Origin: an uncultured Planctomycetales bacterium
GTDB lineage: Bacteria > Omnitrophota > Gorgyraeia > Aquiviventales > Aquiviventaceae
Direction of reading: 5' to 3'
Assembly (NCBI GenBank): GCA_964624155.1
Contig: CAZUWM010000003.1
Location: 1 to 61,396 of the forward strand
DNA length: 61,396 bases
Position numbers and translations under genes: made by a program. Below, piece after piece: positions 3,961-44,205 of this stretch. Every line of letters starts with the position of its first letter. Within the stretch, counting starts at the first letter, position 1. The notes beneath the pieces are model-generated. The model did no database searches. It had not been told where the DNA came from and saw only the letters and a program-made list of their open reading frames with translations.

Positions 3961-4800
3961 CTTACGGCGGAGGAGATCGGTGGCGGCGCGGCTGCCTTCG
4001 CTCAGCAGGGAGCCCATTTTCGGGTGGCTGGGCTCGAAATCAACCGGCACGTCGTGTCGCGTCAGCGCTTCAGAACAAATCGGACCCACTGAGGCGACGA
4101 CAACGCGTCGTCGAACGGCCGCTCGCAACGTGGCGTCCATCTCCATCTCGCGAGCGACGTGCATCAGGTGATCGACTTGGGTCGCTGAGGTGAACAGCAA
4201 CACATCGGCCTGCCCGTGGCAGATGGCGCGAATCGCCTCTCGAAGCGGACCCGTGTCTTCGGGAAGGGCCCACCGATAGACCGGCACGCGCATCACCTCG
4301 GCTCCGCGCGTCTTCAATCCCTGAAGGAGCTCGTCGTTTGTGACGCCATATTCCTGCACCGCCACCCGCTTGCCCTGCACCGGGCACTGGCTGTCCAATG
4401 TCGTCAAGATATCGCGCCAGGTATTGGGCTCCGGGACGGCAATCGTGGGTTTGAGTCCGACCTCTCCCAACGCAATGATGGGTTTTGGGCCGCGCACCAC
4501 CAGGGTCACGCGACCCAGCGCCTGGATAATCTGCTCGTTGGGATACGTCGTGGCGAGGGCTGCGATGAGGGTACGTGTGCCGACCCCGGTCAGGAGGATC
4601 ACGACATCAAGCGAGCCATTGAACAGGCGCGTGGCGAAGGCCAGGGCTTCGTGCTGATCCGTAAGCGGCACTTCCCGCATCGAGGGCGCAACGAACGGCT
4701 CGCCCCCAAATCGACGAATCAGCCGATGCATGTCTTCTGCCCGTCGGCTTTCAAACGCCACGACCCTCAACCCACCGAAATCAGTCGCCGTCGTCATCAC
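3940..4800 (-). CDS. hemD: Uroporphyrinogen-III synthase
   Basis: VAFESRRA, LTGVG, RGPKP, VYRW, FTSATQV, SVGPICSEAL, HPKMG. Confidence 0.85.
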   Translation of the reverse strand: MMTTATDFGGLRVVAFESRRAEDMHRLIRRFGGEPFVAPSMREVPLTDQHEALAFATRLFNGSLDVVILLTGVGTRTLIAALATTYPNEQIIQALGRVTLVVRGPKPIIALGEVGLKPTIAVPEPNTWRDILTTLDSQCPVQGKRVAVQEYGVTNDELLQGLKTRGAEVMRVPVYRWALPEDTGPLREAIRAICHGQADVLLFTSATQVDHLMHVAREMEMDATLRAAVRRRVVVASVGPICSEALTRHDVPVDFEPSHPKMGSLLSEGSRAATDLLRRKSQRSQR

Positions 4801-23366: not shown

Positions 23367-24185
23367 TCACCCATCACCTTCGTTGAGGATGTGCACGATC
23401 TGCTTCGCGAAGGAGGGATGCGCAAGAATCATTTGTGGACCGCTGAACGAGGGGCGGCCCGAGAAGTCGCACATTACGCGCCCGGTCGCGCGGGCGAAGG
23501 CGGCCATCGGCGCGATGTCCCACACCTTGACGCCGTACTCGATCACCGCATCGACATAGCCGCGGATCAACCAGAGATGGCCGGCGCAGTCGCCGTAGGC
23601 TCGTTCAAGAAAACACGACTTGACCAATCGCTGAAACCCGTTCCAATACGGCGTCGGCATCCACCATTTTGAGCCGCCGTGGAAGATCGCCGCATCACGC
23701 AGCGCCGGCGGCCTCGGGGCTCGCGGCAATAACACGCGAAGGCGGCCCTGGCGCTCATAGGGGGGCGTTCGAAGCCCGACACCGATGAACGTCTTCAACG
23801 CCGGAAACCGGCAGGCGCCGAGGACGGGCTTGCCCCGTTCGACGCGCCCGATCAGGGTGCCCCACGTCGGCAGTCCGCGCGAGAAGGCGCGCGTGCCGTC
23901 GATCGGATCGACCGTCCAGTACGTCGCCCTCGGTTGCGCGGACGGCCCTGCCTGCGTCCACCCTGGAGGCAGGCCGAGCTCCTCTCCGACGATGACCTCG
24001 CCGGGAAAGGCGCGCCCCAGCTCGCGGCGCAGGAACTCCTCGATCGTGCGGTCCGCAATCGTGACCGGTGACTGATCGGACTTGCGCTCAACACGCAGGC
24101 GGGTGCGGAAATAGCGCAGGGCGATCCGCTGGCACTCGGCCGTTTTCGCTTCAGCCCACTCTAAACGTTCATCGCGCAGACGCAT
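23367..24185 (-). CDS. Inositol monophosphatase family / histidinol-phosphatase (HisN-like)
   Basis: KSDQSPVTIAD, GEE, DPIDGTRAF, WDIA. Confidence 0.85.
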   Translation of the reverse strand: MRLRDERLEWAEAKTAECQRIALRYFRTRLRVERKSDQSPVTIADRTIEEFLRRELGRAFPGEVIVGEELGLPPGWTQAGPSAQPRATYWTVDPIDGTRAFSRGLPTWGTLIGRVERGKPVLGACRFPALKTFIGVGLRTPPYERQGRLRVLLPRAPRPPALRDAAIFHGGSKWWMPTPYWNGFQRLVKSCFLERAYGDCAGHLWLIRGYVDAVIEYGVKVWDIAPMAAFARATGRVMCDFSGRPSFSGPQMILAHPSFAKQIVHILNEGDG

Positions 24186-26439
24186 GTCGGATCAGGTTGA
24201 GGGCGGAGCCGGCCTTGAACCAGCAGATCTGTTCGTCGGTCAGCGAATGTCCCAGCGTGATTGTCGTCGTCCCGTCGGGCCGGTGGACGATCGCCGTCAC
24301 CGGTTTGCCGGGCGCCAACGCCTTCAAGCCGGTGAGGCTGATGCGAACGTCCGATTGGATCGCGTCGTAATCCGCCGACTTCGTCAACGTCAGCGGCAGG
24401 ATGCCCTGTTTCTTCAGATTCGTTTCATGTAACCGGGCGAAACTTTTGGCGATCACCGCCTTGCACTTCAGGTGGCGGGGCGACATCGCAGCGTGCTCGC
24501 GGCTTGAGCCTTCGCCGTAGTTGTCATCACCCACCGCCACCCATCCCAATCCTTCCGCTTTGTAGTGACGCGCAACTTCCGGGATGGGCTTTTCCTTCCC
24601 ATCGAGCTGATCGATCGCCGTACCGGTCTTGCCGGTAAAGACATTCTCCGCCGCGGTAAACATGTTGTCGCTGATCTTATCCAAATGGCCGCGAAATCGC
24701 AGCCACTTGCCTGCCGGCGAGATGTGATCGGTGGTACATTGGCCTGCCACTTTGATCAATACCGGCAGACGTTCGAAGTCGAGCCCGTTCCACGGCCGAA
24801 ATGGCTCCAACACTTGCAACCGTTCGCTGCCCGTCGGCACGAGCACGGCGATCGTCTTGCGCTCTGTCTCCGGCAGGGGCGGCAAGAAACCCTCCGTACC
24901 CTGCGCGAATCCATTGGACGGTAGCTCCGGTGCCGACGGGGCTTCGAGTGTGACCATTCGACCGTCCGGAGCCTTCAGGGGATCGGCCAATGGATTGAAT
25001 CGCAAGTCCGCCGCAAGCGCCATGGCGGTGACGATCTCCGGACTGCCCATGAATGCCAGCGTCTCGGCGGAGCCATCGTTACGTCGTGGGAAGTTGCGGT
25101 TAAACGAGGTCAAGATCGAATTAACCTCGCCGGACGTGATGTCGTCCCGTTTCCACTGACCGATGCATGGCCCGCAGGCGTTGGCCAGTACCGTGCCGCC
25201 GATCGCCTCGAGCGCTTTCAATTGTCCGTCGCGTTGGATCGTCTGATAAATCTGATCCGAGCCCGGCGTGATCAAGAAATAACACTTCGCTTTCAAGCCG
25301 GCTCGCCGCGCTTGCTCGGCCACCGCCGCGGCCCGCCCGATATCCTCGTAGGAGGAATTCGTGCAACTGCCAATCAGCGCCACCTTGATCTGCGGCGGCC
25401 AGCCACCCTGTTCGAGGTCCTTGCCCAACTGCGAGATGGGACGCGCCGCATCGGGTGAGCGCGGCCCCACGATGTACGGCTCAAGGGTGGTCAGATCAAT
25501 CTCGATGATCTCATCAAAGAATCGCTTCGGATCGTGCTCGACCTCCGGATCCGCGATCAGCGAAGCGCGATGCTGCTCGGCCAGTTGCGTAAGTTCCGTA
25601 CGATCCGTGGCGCGCAGATACGTGCTCATCCGCTCATCAAATGGAAACACTGAGGTCGTCGCCCCCAGCTCCGCGCCCATGTTGGTGATCGTCGCCTTAC
25701 CGGTGCAACTGATCGACGCCGTGCCGGGGCCGAAATATTCGATGATCTTGTTCGTCCCGCCCTTGGTCGTCAGGAGGCCGCATACTTTTAGGATCACGTC
25801 CTTCGGCGAAGTCCACCCCTGAAGCCGTCCGGTCAGATGCACGCCGACGAGTTTGGGACACTTCACTTCCCACGGAAGGCCTGACATCACATCCGCCGCA
25901 TCCGCCCCCCCGACCCCGATGGCCAGCATCCCCAGGCCGCCGGCATTGGGCGTGTGCGAATCGGTGCCGATGATCAACCCGCCGGGAAACGCGTATTGTT
26001 CAAGGAACACCTGGTGGATGATGCCGGCCCCTGGCTGCCAGAACCCCATCCCATAGCGCTGCGAGGCGGAGCGCAGGAAATCGTAGACCTCGCGGTTCGC
26101 TTCCAGGGCCGCTTTCATGTCGTCGGAGGCCCCGACGCGCGCCTGGATGAGATGGTCGCAGTGGACCGTCGTCGGCACCGCTACGGTGTCGCGCCCCGCC
26201 AACATGAACTGGAGGATCGCCATCTGAGCGGTGGCATCCTGCATGATCACCCGGTCGGGATAGAGCGTGAGGTAACTCGTGCCGCGGACAAACTCTTGAG
26301 TGGCCGGATCCGCGACATGGGCGGCGAGGATTTTCTCCGAAAGCGTCAGCGGCCGCCCCAACCGCTTGCGCAGCACGACCTGTTTCTCCGCCAGCCTCGT
26401 GTACAAGGTCTTGATCGCGTCGATCTCTACGGCGGTCAT
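24169..26439 (-). CDS. Aconitate hydratase (mitochondrial-type AcnA family)
   Basis: MQDATAQMA, HCDHLI, DSHTPNAGG, IGSCTNSSYED, NACGPCIGQW, TTDHISPAG, GSSREHAA. Confidence 0.93.
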   Translation of the reverse strand: MTAVEIDAIKTLYTRLAEKQVVLRKRLGRPLTLSEKILAAHVADPATQEFVRGTSYLTLYPDRVIMQDATAQMAILQFMLAGRDTVAVPTTVHCDHLIQARVGASDDMKAALEANREVYDFLRSASQRYGMGFWQPGAGIIHQVFLEQYAFPGGLIIGTDSHTPNAGGLGMLAIGVGGADAADVMSGLPWEVKCPKLVGVHLTGRLQGWTSPKDVILKVCGLLTTKGGTNKIIEYFGPGTASISCTGKATITNMGAELGATTSVFPFDERMSTYLRATDRTELTQLAEQHRASLIADPEVEHDPKRFFDEIIEIDLTTLEPYIVGPRSPDAARPISQLGKDLEQGGWPPQIKVALIGSCTNSSYEDIGRAAAVAEQARRAGLKAKCYFLITPGSDQIYQTIQRDGQLKALEAIGGTVLANACGPCIGQWKRDDITSGEVNSILTSFNRNFPRRNDGSAETLAFMGSPEIVTAMALAADLRFNPLADPLKAPDGRMVTLEAPSAPELPSNGFAQGTEGFLPPLPETERKTIAVLVPTGSERLQVLEPFRPWNGLDFERLPVLIKVAGQCTTDHISPAGKWLRFRGHLDKISDNMFTAAENVFTGKTGTAIDQLDGKEKPIPEVARHYKAEGLGWVAVGDDNYGEGSSREHAAMSPRHLKCKAVIAKSFARLHETNLKKQGILPLTLTKSADYDAIQSDVRISLTGLKALAPGKPVTAIVHRPDGTTTITLGHSLTDEQICWFKAGSALNLIRHASAR

Positions 26440-26511: not shown

Positions 26512-26540
26512 TTGATGGTCCAAGAAGAATGAGGTATAAT
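26512..26540 (+). promoter_or_regulatory. Sigma70 promoter of the riboswitch leader
   Basis: TTGATG(26512)-N17-TATAAT(26535) in an AT-rich intergenic region. Confidence 0.65.
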
Positions 26541-26621
26541 TACTTTACAATTTAGAAGTTTAGAAAAGGTTAGGTAATCTCACGATAAATCCGCCACAGG
26601 GCATGGCGGACCCGCCAGGCA

Positions 26622-26749
26622 AGTTGGCGGGGGCAAATCCCGAGCGATCGGGAGACGTCCTGAAAGGGATCCCCCCAGGGTTGATTCGCGAGCGAATCAT
26701 GGGGGGGCAAAGCCGCGGATCCTACGAACGGACAGCCGGGCTGCCGAAC
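26622..26749 (+). ncRNA. c-di-GMP-I (GEMM)-like riboswitch with a 50-nt insertion
   Basis: GGCAAA-TCCCGA-GCGA-TCGGGA-GAC-[26657-26706]-GCAAAGCCGCGG..GGACAGCCGGGCTGCCGAA matches the GEMM layout. Confidence 0.75.
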
Positions 26750-26823
26750 CCTTCGACAGGCTCAGGGTTCAGTCCTGAGCAGAGTCGAAGGACCGAAGAG
26801 AATCGGCAGCCCGGTTTTTGTTT
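26736..26823 (+). terminator. Intrinsic terminator overlapping the aptamer 3' strand
   Basis: CCGGGCTGCCGA (26736-47) pairs perfectly with TCGGCAGCCCGG (26803-14), followed by TTTTTGTTT. Confidence 0.75.
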
Positions 26824-30048: not shown

Positions 30049-30122
30049 TCCCTGATCCATAAATAAACCCGAGATTGCTATGCATCATCAGATGTGGTAT
30101 TTTACGCAGTGAAGGTAACCCC

Positions 30123-30323
30123 ATGCGTACCACCCTTGATCTGAATGAGAAGTTGTTGTCCCAAGCCATGGCGGCTGCACACACGAAGACGAAGAAAGCA
30201 ACGGTGGAGCGATCGTTGCGTGAATTGATCCGCGCCGCCCACATCGAACGGCTCATCACCCGACGCGGAGAGGGGACGACGCTGACCCTCCGCACGCTGT
30301 CCCGCATGCGTCGGGATGCGTAA
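30123..30323 (+). CDS. vapB: VapB-family antitoxin
   Basis: MRTTLDLNEKLL..AM..TKTKKATVERSLRELI; promoter TTGCTA-N17-TATTTT at 30075-30103. Confidence 0.85.
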   Translation: MRTTLDLNEKLLSQAMAAAHTKTKKATVERSLRELIRAAHIERLITRRGEGTTLTLRTLSRMRRDA

Positions 30324-30735
30324 GCCGCTCGTCTTGGTCGATTCGTCCATCTGGATTCCCTTCCTGCGGAGTCGAACAGCCGATCCGGCGGCGGAACTCC
30401 TGATGGGGCTGCTTCGTGACAAGCGGGTCGCGACCAACTGGCTGATCCGGCTGGAACTGCTCAGTGGAACGGCCACACACCAGGCCTATGAGTCGCTCGA
30501 TGCAGATCTGGCCGCGCTCCATCAGCTCCCGCTGACAGAGAAGGTGTTTCACGCGGCCAGCCTGCTACGATGGCGGCTCCATCGCAAGGGTGCTTCCATT
30601 CCGGTGGTCGATACCCTGATTGCGGCCTGCGCCATCTTCTACGCTTGCCCACTGCTGGAAGACGATGCTCACTTCCGACTGATCGCCAAACACGCCCCGC
30701 TTCATCTTCATCTTTCGTCAGGGCTCCACATTTGA
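30316..30735 (+). CDS. vapC: PIN-domain toxin
   Basis: LVDSSIWI, ELLSG, VDTLIAACA, LLEDDAHF. Confidence 0.9.
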   Translation: MRKPLVLVDSSIWIPFLRSRTADPAAELLMGLLRDKRVATNWLIRLELLSGTATHQAYESLDADLAALHQLPLTEKVFHAASLLRWRLHRKGASIPVVDTLIAACAIFYACPLLEDDAHFRLIAKHAPLHLHLSSGLHI

Positions 30736-42003: not shown

Positions 42004-44205
42004 TCACCGAACCGCATCAAGGAGTTCCACCATCTTCGCGACATCGGTGGTCGGCAGATTACACAGATAGTTCTGGCAGACGTAGGCGGTGGATTGGCCC
42101 TGAAGCGGTAGTTGATTCGCCACAAACGGGATCAGGGCTTCGATCGCGCTGGCCTTTGACCCGCTCGGATGAAACGCCGCAACCGCTCTGGGGAGGAAGC
42201 GACGGTGAACCGCCTGAATCATGGACTGAGTCTGTGGAGTGGAGGGATCGCCGGCGATGACGATCTCTTGCGAGGGGCCCAGCCAATGATCCAGGGCGAT
42301 GAGAAACTGGGGAAAGGCGTGCGGAGCGCGGGCCACCTCTCCCGAGAAGGCTTCGATGAGCCGCTTCGCCTTCTCCTGCAGGACGTCATCCATCGTCAGC
42401 GTGCCTAAGCGAACCAACACCAGGGCGGCCACCGAGTTGCCTGACGGAACCGCGCCGTCGTACAACTCCTTGGTGCGGGCGATGAGGGTTTCATTCTTGG
42501 CGCCGCCCAGGAACAACCCGCCTGAGGAGTCATCCCAGAAGAGCCGCACCATCTCGTTCGTCAACCGTTTCGCCTCCGAGAGCCAGCGCGCGTCGAACGT
42601 CGCCTCGTAGAGCTCCAGCAAGCCCCAGCTCAAGAAGGCGTAGTCATCGAGGAACGCTGGGATGGCGGCTTCCCCGTCTCGATAGCGATGCAGGAGCCTC
42701 CCCTTCTGTTGAAGACGATCCAGCACGAATGACGCCGCCCGCGTCGCCTCCTCTGCATACTGCGGCTCTCCCAACGCTTTGGCCCCGTAGGCGAGGACGC
42801 CGATCATCAGGCCGTTCCAGTCGGTGAGGATTTTGTCATCGCGGTGCGGCCGCTTCCGACGGTTTCGAGCCTCCAACAGTTTGGCCCGCGCGGCGTCAAG
42901 CCGCGTCTGAACCGACGGGTCGGGGGATGTCGCCGTCGTCAGAATCGTCGTGCCGTTCTCTCCGCCAAACTGATTGGCGGATCCGCCATGCTGTGTGGCG
43001 GAAAAGTTCCCGGCCAGCGTCACGCCAAACGCTTCCATGACGAAGGCGGCGTCTTCCTCGCCAACCACCGTCTTGATCTCCTCCGGCGTCCAGACGTAAA
43101 ACTCCCCTTCCTTCCCCACCTCGCCAGCATCCTCTGCGGAATAGAACGCGCCCTCGGGACCGCGCAGATCCCGCAGCACGTAGGTGAAGATGTCCCTCGC
43201 CGTCTGGGCGTACGAGGCGTTGCCGGTCACTTGATAGGCTTCGAGGTACGTCCGCGCCAGCAGCGCCTGATCGTAGAGCATCTTCTCAAAATGCGGGACC
43301 AGCCACTGCTCATCTGTCGAGTAGCGGTGGAAGCCTCCGCCCAGATGGTCGTGAATGCCGCCCCGCGCCATGGCATCCAGCGTTTCCTCGACCATCTTCA
43401 GCAGCTGGGGATCGCGCTGCCGATACCACACCCTCAACAGGAACGACAGCGCATGGCTGCGGGGAAACTTCGGGGCTGAGCCGAATCCGCCATGGGTGGG
43501 GTCATACTGGTTGCTGAACTGGACCGCCGCGGTTTGCAGTGTTTCAAGGCCCACGGACGACGAGACGGTGCGTTCGGCGCCGGCCTGCAGAGCTTGGGTA
43601 ATGGATTGACTCGAGGTGAGGAGGTCGTGGCGTTTGGTCTGCCAGGACTCGTGGATCGAGCGCAAGACCGTCTTGAACCCCGGTCGGCCGAACGCGTCCT
43701 CCGGAGGAAAATACGTCCCACCCCAAAACGGTTTGCCCTCCGGAGTCAAGAACACGGTCATCGGCCAGCCGCCTTGCCCCGACATCGCTTGGACCGCGCT
43801 CATGTAGAGCGCATCGAGGTCGGGACGCTCCTCCCGATCGACCTTGATCGAGACAAACCAGTCGTTCATCAATTTGGCAATCTCTGGACTCTCGAAGGAT
43901 TCCTGCTCCATGACATGACACCAGTAACAGGTGGAATAGCCGATAGAGAGCAGGATCGGCTTGTCTTCCCGCTTGGCGCGGGCCAACGCCTCCTCCCCCC
44001 ATGGATACCAGTCCACGGGGTTGTGGGCGTGCTGCAAGAGGTAGGGACTCTTTTCTTTAATCAGGCGATTGGATTGGCGAGCGGTCTGTTCCTGCGCCAT
44101 GCGCGTGGGCTCTGTAGTGGTCCGTGGACGGATGCCGGCCACCCACAGGGTAGCCGCCATCCCGGCGACCACGGCCATCAACAACCACCACTTCCTTTTT
44201 ACCAT
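42004..44205 (-). CDS. YyaL/SPATA20-like protein (DUF255 thioredoxin plus alpha/alpha-barrel)
   Basis: [58 protein letters not shown]. Confidence 0.93.

Follow-up and report, generated by a model that had tools for sequence, protein, structure and literature searches.

The window analysed here is a stretch of 61,396 nucleotides (nt) from an uncultured Planctomycetales bacterium that GTDB places in the Omnitrophota (assembly GCA_964624155.1, contig CAZUWM010000003.1). The leader upstream of a gene for a putative secreted protein with GH2-like and PKD domains was found to hold an aptamer of the cyclic di-GMP (c-di-GMP) class I, or GEMM-I, riboswitches, interrupted by inserted hairpins. Sequence comparison left its homology to the c-di-GMP-I class in no doubt. 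Alignment with related elements further indicated that the two-hairpin expansion inside the aptamer core is a recurrent and structurally conserved variant of this class. We consider it fairly probable that the element is a working c-di-GMP ON switch that tolerates its inserts as plug-in hairpins and controls the GH2/PKD protein by transcription termination, and that expansions of this recurrent type arose from palindromic elements.

The closest homolog of the downstream protein (P0002, 64% identity) is encoded on contig L001 (GCA_964342925.1). This contig and the window have in common the promoter, the leader start, the terminator, the end of the flanking aconitase gene and the downstream gene. 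At the syntenic position, L001 carries a canonical 74-nt aptamer that scored 71.5 bits with the Rfam model c-di-GMP-I-GGC (RF03167), and another canonical aptamer (62.4 bits) lies upstream of the more distant ortholog P0003 on L005. MAFFT merged three gaps into one, so the comparison was made by segmented alignment. It revealed exactly three extra blocks in the window, termed ins1 (42 nt), ins2 (50 nt) and ins3 (46 nt). After removal of these blocks the window leader was colinear with that of L001, with 130 of 148 positions identical (88%). Three pairs of helix P2 had changed in a compensatory manner (UCCGCC-GCAA-GGCGGA in L001), with a GNRA loop preserved in both. It is this colinearity, together with the compensatory pairs, that settles the homology, and it bears out the initial annotation, which had proposed a c-di-GMP-I aptamer with an insertion. 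Because L001 and L005 both lack the inserts, the window version is most likely an expanded derivative, precise loss of the inserts in the L001 and L005 lineages being the less probable alternative.

No Rfam model matched anywhere in the 61-kb window at its gathering score. The only relevant match in a permissive search was to RF03167, with 26.3 bits where the threshold is 59, and it spanned 26670-26749 in a mis-aligned manner. That a standard model might miss the variant had been anticipated, and the shortfall from the gathering threshold, which is an operational limit, can be attributed to the three insertions. The Rfam alignment treated the second inserted hairpin as P2. This was rejected, since GGCAAA and the GNRA-capped P2 lie upstream and the ortholog fixes the alignment. 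A tandem or partial duplication of the aptamer was also rejected, there being no second set of core blocks. Assembly artefact was judged an implausible source of the inserts, as inserts of these types recur across many independent assemblies. An independent Logan contig (L006, run ERR4904391) starts in the ins3 loop, with L006:1 corresponding to window position 26771, and confirms only the 3' half of ins3; the break is probably an effect of the inverted repeat on the assembly graph. A look-up of the aconitase for independent assembly support found nothing.

The core blocks of the window occur in the order typical of RF01051 (the Vc2 type; clan CL00126): an A-rich J1/2, GGCAAA, a GNRA-capped P2, GAC-GC-AAA, the AGCC...GGCU helix P3 and GCUGCC. 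The GEMM landmarks that the initial annotation had listed were all present at 26632-26748. It had overlooked a third insertion in the terminator loop (26749-26794) and the 5' strand of P1 (26578-26584), which lies upstream of where it began the element. The window also resembles RF01051 in its 5'-leader position, in a platform that competes with the aptamer through a terminator overlapping the aptamer 3' strand, and in the canonical member at the orthologous position. It differs in that the contiguous GAC-GC-AAA of the three-helix junction is interrupted, with 50 nt at GACG^CAAAG and 42 nt, a double hairpin, in J1/2. The window thus has abutting hairpins that split the 2-bp base of P2 as well as a hairpin in the terminator loop, and its junction is no longer a simple three-way one.

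The structure lines of the Rfam consensus pair the GC after GAC with the GC of GGCAAA. The insertion ins2 splits the conserved G and C of GAC-GC-AAA, and is therefore placed within the two base pairs that form the base of P2, with a single nucleotide between it and the A-rich J2/3. Its two hairpins, hpA and hpB, have no linker between them when the register is taken as GACG/ins2/CAAAGCC, which is ambiguous by 1 nt because G flanks both sides. The predicted fold left no unpaired nucleotides between the two hairpins or between either of them and its flank. The 50 nt described earlier as two closed hairpins between GAC(G) and (G)CAAAGCC were thus recovered by folding, and they are absent from L001. 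Two abutting hairpins at the base of P2 would form a perfect four-way junction, in which coaxial stacking of P2 could persist and hpA could stack on hpB. Such a geometry may explain why pairs of hairpins recur rather than single ones, and why many RNAs tolerate the dispersed repeat E1 described below.

Metagenome contigs were scanned with the pattern GGCAAA-N6-GNNA-N6-GACG-N{25,55}-CAAARC-N{15,45}-GYTGCC. Among the 120 matches listed, 48 had a real insert at GACG^CAAARC, 31 were canonical aptamers with a downstream CAAARC, and 41 were chance matches without P2 pairing. The search of relatives for the same insertion thus yielded 44 further distinct examples. To these was added L120, from a GTDB scan for E1 whose listed matches are almost all Omnitrophota, and with the window the set comprised 46 distinct inserts. 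Two abutting hairpins spanning the insert were the minimum-free-energy (MFE) fold in 39 of the 46, compared with 83 of 2300 mononucleotide shuffles; the other seven formed two hairpins with 2-nt linkers. The 46 insert sequences were very diverse. Those of L154, L183 and L192 were closest in form to the window (UCC-loop-GGGA, then UCCC...GGGG). Eight loci (L124, L125, L158, L177, L185, L189, L234 and L241) carried a 48-nt doublet family at this site, CCNUGAACC-N6-GGUUCANGG twice, and the first of them belongs to the Omnitrophota by its best named protein matches, as does the window. The doublets came from loci with GC contents of 34-61% and were nearly confined to riboswitches, with one copy elsewhere (L155:2187), and the family may have a sequence-specific role.

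Conservation of the two hairpins was assessed on a trimmed alignment of 29 sequences with five closing pairs kept per hairpin. Its covariation score of 0.81 exceeded those of shuffles (0.20) and of slid partners (0.06-0.20), and 97.3% of its cells were paired, although the inner boundary of each hairpin had been taken from the MFE fold of that sequence, which leans the alignment towards structure. Both-sided changes were seen at all five pairs of hpA and at four of the five pairs of hpB, the closing pair of hpB being C-G in 28 of 29 sequences. The six P2 pairs all covaried in the expanded-aptamer alignment. A terminator-like hairpin with a T-run followed 41 of the 46 expanded aptamers, as against 8/40 chance matches and 22/30 canonical aptamers, and 42 of the 46 had an open reading frame (ORF) downstream. 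The downstream genes that were checked encoded an RlpA-like DPBB protein and a PorV-like protein; no homologs of the window's GH protein were found near other expanded aptamers. RF01051 detected 13 of 20 tested expanded aptamers at 37-57 bits with the insert hidden in a local gap, and missed seven. Many expanded members are probably present, unrecognised, among Rfam matches. The Omnitrophota loci fetched through E1 hold too few aptamers for an unbiased frequency of expansion.

The location of ins2, one nucleotide from the J2/3 adenines, raised the question of ligand specificity, for which the initial annotation had suggested a change. The expansion beside the pocket might re-tune the aptamer to 3'3'-cyclic GMP-AMP (cGAMP), another cyclic dinucleotide or some other ligand. 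Known GEMM-I variants shift specificity through few changes, and in Vc2 structures the A-rich J2/3 strand supplies the adenine that is stacked between the ligand guanines. The pocket positions of the window are nevertheless canonical and identical to those of insert-free L001, with the G before GCAAA, the A in GCAAAGCC and GCUGCC. The cGAMP-type GEMM-Ib is defined by A, not G, 5' of the GC in GGCAAA; the window has G at 26632, as had been noted before. Although RF03167 is the best-scoring Rfam model for L001, L005 and the 3' half of the window, its consensus reads GCGAAGCC, with G replacing A in GC-A-AAGCC (GCGAAgCc), whereas GCAAAGCC, the RF01051 form, is present in both L001 and the window, so the latter does not belong to the GGC pocket type. 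The regulated gene class, secreted and surface proteins, is typical for c-di-GMP, and all 46 expanded aptamers keep GGCAAA, CAAARC and GYTGCC, though the search pattern required these. Altered ligand specificity thus found no support in the sequences, and we regard it as very improbable.

The expression platform overlaps the aptamer directly. The segment CCGGGCUGCCGA spans three aptamer elements, the 3' strand of P3, J3/1 and the 3' strand of P1, and is complementary to UCGGCAGCCCGG at 12 of 12 positions. The terminator was the MFE fold of the leader (-125.1 kcal/mol, z = -6.4), and L001 has the same design without ins3. The aptamer state was feasible in a constrained fold at -103 kcal/mol, with P1 formed by UCUC-A-CG and CG...GAGA, the 2-bp P2 base, P2, P3 and all inserts as closed hairpins. 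Because the aptamer 3' strand doubles as the 5' arm of the terminator, the anatomy points to an ON switch, in which aptamer folding stabilised by the ligand should block termination and allow read-through. Each insert would close on itself and bring the flanking core nucleotides back together, so that the core of three helices would be preserved along with the terminator and the nucleotides of the pocket. An additional pairing is possible between the 3' arm of the second hairpin of ins1 (GUUGGCGG, 26623-26630) and the 3' tail of the aptamer (CUGCCGAAC, 26741-26749), an alternative P1-like helix that competes with that hairpin. Similar GCGG/CCGC complementarity occurs in L054.

The first insert proved to be a copy of a dispersed repeat. 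Exactly four occurrences of the motif CCGCCA-N7-UGGCGG were counted in the window, forming tandem pairs at 26591/26612 and at 42962/42983, against a shuffle mean of 0.52. We defined this repeat as E1, a 42-nt element reading [U/C]CCGCCA-N7-UGGCGG[A/G] twice, and built the covariance model R1, which found two copies in the window, at 26590-26631 (54 bits) and 42961-43002 (60 bits), and no others there. The two hairpins that the initial annotation had placed directly upstream of the aptamer are thus real, but they are an E1 copy and not an elaboration specific to the aptamer. When one genome per GTDB species was scanned for the doublet with exact stems required, at least 117 stretches were obtained, nearly all from Candidatus Omnitrophota metagenome-assembled genomes of 39-67% GC. 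In both hairpins the seventh base pair covaried (first hairpin: U-A 82, C-G 27; second hairpin: U-A 74, C-G 37), and the loop positions A2/C6 and G2/U6 were conserved. E1 consists of two hairpins and, as DNA, is two-fold symmetric. Folding as one long REPIN-type hairpin was rejected, since there is no covariation between positions 1 and 42 and since complementarity between loop 1 and loop 2 was not above that of shuffles.

E1 was found inside several kinds of structured RNA. It lies directly 5' of the G in GGCAAA or GGUAAA, the ins1 site of the window, in L014, L043 and L054. Seven Omnitrophota genomes (L013, L039, L063, L066, L078, L094 and L104) have it within RNase P RNA, with the host RNA at 130-165 bits, and it occupies the apical loop of a helix in both RNase P alignments shown (L066 and L039). 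Two genomes have it in tmRNA (L075:3348-3387 and L080:7084-7123). These RNase P RNA and tmRNA hosts are still far above the Rfam thresholds. At the D-loop position, E1 also occurs in tRNA copies that are extra or partial (L086:699-740, L113:2259-2298, L016:2536-2577, L027:7641-7682, L046, L073, L109 and L077), which adjoin an intact tRNA of the same anticodon and duplicate its 5' part. The aptamer at L043:1231-1290, an ortholog of that in L054, has the extra P2 hairpins CUGUACC-GUAU-GGUACAG and GGCCCGCAAGGGUUC besides E1 in J1/2, another sign of Omnitrophota aptamers accumulating hairpins. One Omnitrophota locus with E1 also holds a group I intron (L028:2140-2474, 61.5 bits).

Protein-coding genes carry the repeat as well. 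Stop-free frames of at least 200 codons run through 47 of 120 E1 copies (L007-L123), and 30 of these 47 use a single frame that gives [S/P]A-x3-GG twice. This preference suggests either selection for a benign peptide or frame-specific insertion. The second E1 copy of the window is in frame in a DUF255/YyaL gene, and its peptide sits between GNF and ENGTTIL, where PDB 7tkv_A has a 12-residue gap. The closest ortholog lacks E1, as do most DUF255/YyaL orthologs, which read GNFEHGTTIL. Other orthologs have different Ser/Ala/Gly-rich inserts at the identical site, such as SAEGGSASGG, whose coding sequence would amount to a double hairpin of 30 nt.

Several observations weigh against the reading as a working switch with harmless inserts of palindromic origin. 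The window aptamer is below every Rfam threshold, and it was the only example seen with all three inserts together. By about 22 kcal/mol, the terminator state is favoured over the modelled aptamer state, so function would depend on co-transcriptional kinetics, and these could be disturbed by the 92 nt that the inserts add inside the aptamer. R1 does not recognise ins2, so its origin from E1 can only be proposed. E1 insertion is not always harmless, since the tRNA copies that bear it adjoin intact duplicates. The covariation alignment, as said, leans towards structure. The main rival to a working switch is recent inactivation, in which selfish palindromic elements invaded the leader, the aptamer no longer binds, and the apparent conservation reflects only how recent the insertions are. 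The missing gathering-score match, the three insertions, two of which adjoin pocket nucleotides, the redundant or partial nature of the tRNA copies that carry E1, and the absence of all three inserts from the nearest ortholog speak in favour of such decay. Opposed to this, the core nucleotides, the P2 and P3 pairing and the terminator are all intact, and the inserts, placed at junctions or loops, all form closed hairpins. Both insertion sites within the aptamer recur in many otherwise good aptamers with terminators and ORFs, and E1 is tolerated by the essential RNase P RNA and tmRNA. We therefore judge decay to be unlikely, and continue with the working switch.

The origin of the expansions can be approached from the ins2 site in other loci. 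E1 itself occupies this site in L120 (between GACG and CAAAAC), L148, L130, L153, L165 and L168/L212, and the inserts of L149, L174, L178 and L146 look intermediate between E1 and unrelated hairpins. As the module is E1 in some members and intermediate in others, the expansions probably began as insertions of palindromic elements like E1, with the inserted hairpins kept as structurally harmless or mildly useful. The intermediates are likewise consistent with an origin of the window's ins2 from an E1-like element. Direct descent of ins2 from an E1 copy was tried and rejected: the stems are alike (UCC..GGA and UCCCCCCA..UGGGGGGG, compared with UCCGCCA..UGGCGGA), but R1 gave no match even at E<=10. 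A stronger form of the proposal holds that E1-type double hairpins are a mobile Omnitrophota module that was repeatedly inserted into the c-di-GMP-I junction and is selectively maintained there, with the four-way junction changing kinetics, affinity or factor recruitment. We put this forward tentatively, as rather unlikely. If true, riboswitch architecture would be evolving by capture of a palindromic element.

The inserted double hairpins, and E1 especially, might also be functional add-ons that bind a phylum-specific protein or tune folding kinetics, giving the switch a second input or altered dynamics. The C-G closing pair of hpB and the insert families such as CCNUGAACC...GGUUCANGG, conserved across loci of widely differing GC content and almost confined to riboswitches, are consistent with this. 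So are the conserved loop positions of E1 and its stems, invariant across 39-67% GC genomes, although the stems are invariant because the search demanded them. Yet the insert sequences are otherwise very diverse, and E1 also occurs in frame in proteins, where a role at the RNA level is unlikely. A dedicated function of the hairpins thus seems quite improbable, and we favour their tolerance by a working switch. The coordinates of the leader and its neighbours are collected in Table 1.

Table 1. Features of the expanded c-di-GMP-I leader, its flanking genes and the second E1 copy, in window coordinates.
Feature	Position	Strand	Remarks
Leader	26578-26819	+	c-di-GMP-I (GEMM-I) aptamer, then intrinsic terminator
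Aconitase gene	24169-26439	-	divergent, on the other side of the leader
Promoter-like site TTGATG-17-TATAAT	26512-26540	+	1 seen vs 0.1 expected in shuffles; conserved with L001
P1 5' strand UCUC-A-CG	26578-26584	+	identical in L001 (part of the 71.5-bit RF03167 match); P1 present in constrained fold
A-rich J1/2 segment AUAAA	26585-26589	+	identical in L001
ins1, E1 copy (UCCGCCA-N7-UGGCGGA then CCCGCCA-N7-UGGCGGG)	26590-26631	+	in J1/2, directly 5' of the G preceding GCAAA
Aptamer 5' core	26632-26657	+	pocket G, G-C of 2-bp P2 base, AAA, P2 with GNRA loop, GAC-G
GGCAAA	26632-26637	+	aptamer landmark
P2 hairpin UCCCGA-GCGA-UCGGGA	26638-26653	+	GNRA-capped
GAC	26654-26656	+	aptamer landmark
ins2	26658-26707 (or 26657-26706)	+	50 nt; two abutting hairpins, hpA and hpB
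hpA UCCU-GAAA-GGGA	26658-26669	+	first hairpin of ins2
hpB UCCCCCCA...UGGGGGGG	26670-26707	+	8-bp C/G stem enclosing UGAUUCG-CGAG-CGAAUCA
CAAAGCC	26708-26714	+	aptamer landmark
Aptamer 3' core: C-AAA (J2/3), P3, GC, P1 3' CG, AA	26708-26748	+	stems identical to L001; aligned to RF03167 positions 36-80
P3 hairpin	26711-26742	+	within aptamer 3' core
GCCGGGCTGCCGAA (same stretch also given as GCCGGGCUGCCGAA)	26735-26748	+	3' aptamer landmark
ins3, 46-nt hairpin CCUUCGAC...GUCGAAGG around CUCAGG-N7-CCUGAG	26749-26794	+	in terminator loop = internal loop of P1 3' strand
Intrinsic terminator	26736-26819	+	5' arm CCGGGCUGCCGA 26736-26747, 3' arm UCGGCAGCCCGG 26803-26814, then UUUUU
Distal P1 3' strand GAGA	26798-26801	+	inside terminator region
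Putative regulated gene, 1070 aa	26836-30048	+	signal-like N-terminus, Pro/Thr/Ser linker, GH2 TIM-barrel-like domain, PKD domain
Second E1 copy	42961-43002		in frame in DUF255/YyaL thioredoxin-like gene 42004-44205 (-); 14-residue reading

The third insert, ins3, is an inverted repeat that is absent from L001 and present in the MFE fold. Its arm motif CCUUCGAC-N-GCUCAGG and the complement were found twice in L120 (4554-4640), at L001:5381, L024:5466 and L091:2532, and at 26750-26791 of the window. These six occurrences in 1.58 Mb compare with a rough estimate of fewer than one expected, weak evidence that the motif may represent a second dispersed palindromic repeat family. Downstream of the putative regulated gene, the window has a VapB/PIN (VapC-like) toxin-antitoxin pair at 30075-30735. 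L001 has a PIN gene, directly preceded by a short ORF, at 4034-4680, a few genes further downstream than in the window. Synteny between the two also extends to HTTM/DCC1-like genes. No c-di-GMP enzymes or transposase were seen among the 20 neighbouring ORFs scanned.

E1 can be compared with two known types of repeat. Rickettsia palindromic elements (RPEs) are short interspersed palindromic repeats that occur both between and within protein-coding genes (PMC1779305). E1 likewise occurs in frame in proteins, and additionally in tmRNA and RNase P RNA, but the likeness is one of behaviour only: RPEs are elements of 100-150 bp from Rickettsiales, whereas E1 is a 42-bp symmetric pair of 7-bp hairpins from Omnitrophota, unrelated in sequence. 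With the REP/REPIN sequences E1 shares a doublet organisation, being two inverted copies of an imperfect palindrome of about 21 nt, and its dispersal in many copies. In contrast to these, E1 is not extragenic, as it lies inside genes and structured RNAs, and its covariation corresponds to two hairpins and not to a long REPIN hairpin. The E1 consensus also lacks the GTAG/CGTC end tag (PMC3733652); no search was made for a RAYT transposase. The riboswitch class itself is known. In a literature search that did not cover all journals, we found nothing relevant on an expanded GEMM-I variant, no description of E1-like hairpin repeats in Omnitrophota, and none of a link between the two.

Taken together, these results imply that an expanded form is common in this well-studied riboswitch class and is missed or mis-aligned by standard models. 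As the window and 7 of the 20 examples tested do not reach threshold, the c-di-GMP regulons of Omnitrophota would be under-annotated. The expanded aptamers amount to a natural experiment on the tolerance of the GEMM-I junction, with two abutting hairpins one nucleotide from the strand that contacts the ligand, and in engineered riboswitches the expansion sites may be of use, for instance to accommodate reporters. E1 appears to be an RPE-like element not described before, from a phylum whose members are mostly uncultured and very small. Its presence inside essential RNAs, riboswitches and coding genes suggests one route by which structured RNAs gain helices.

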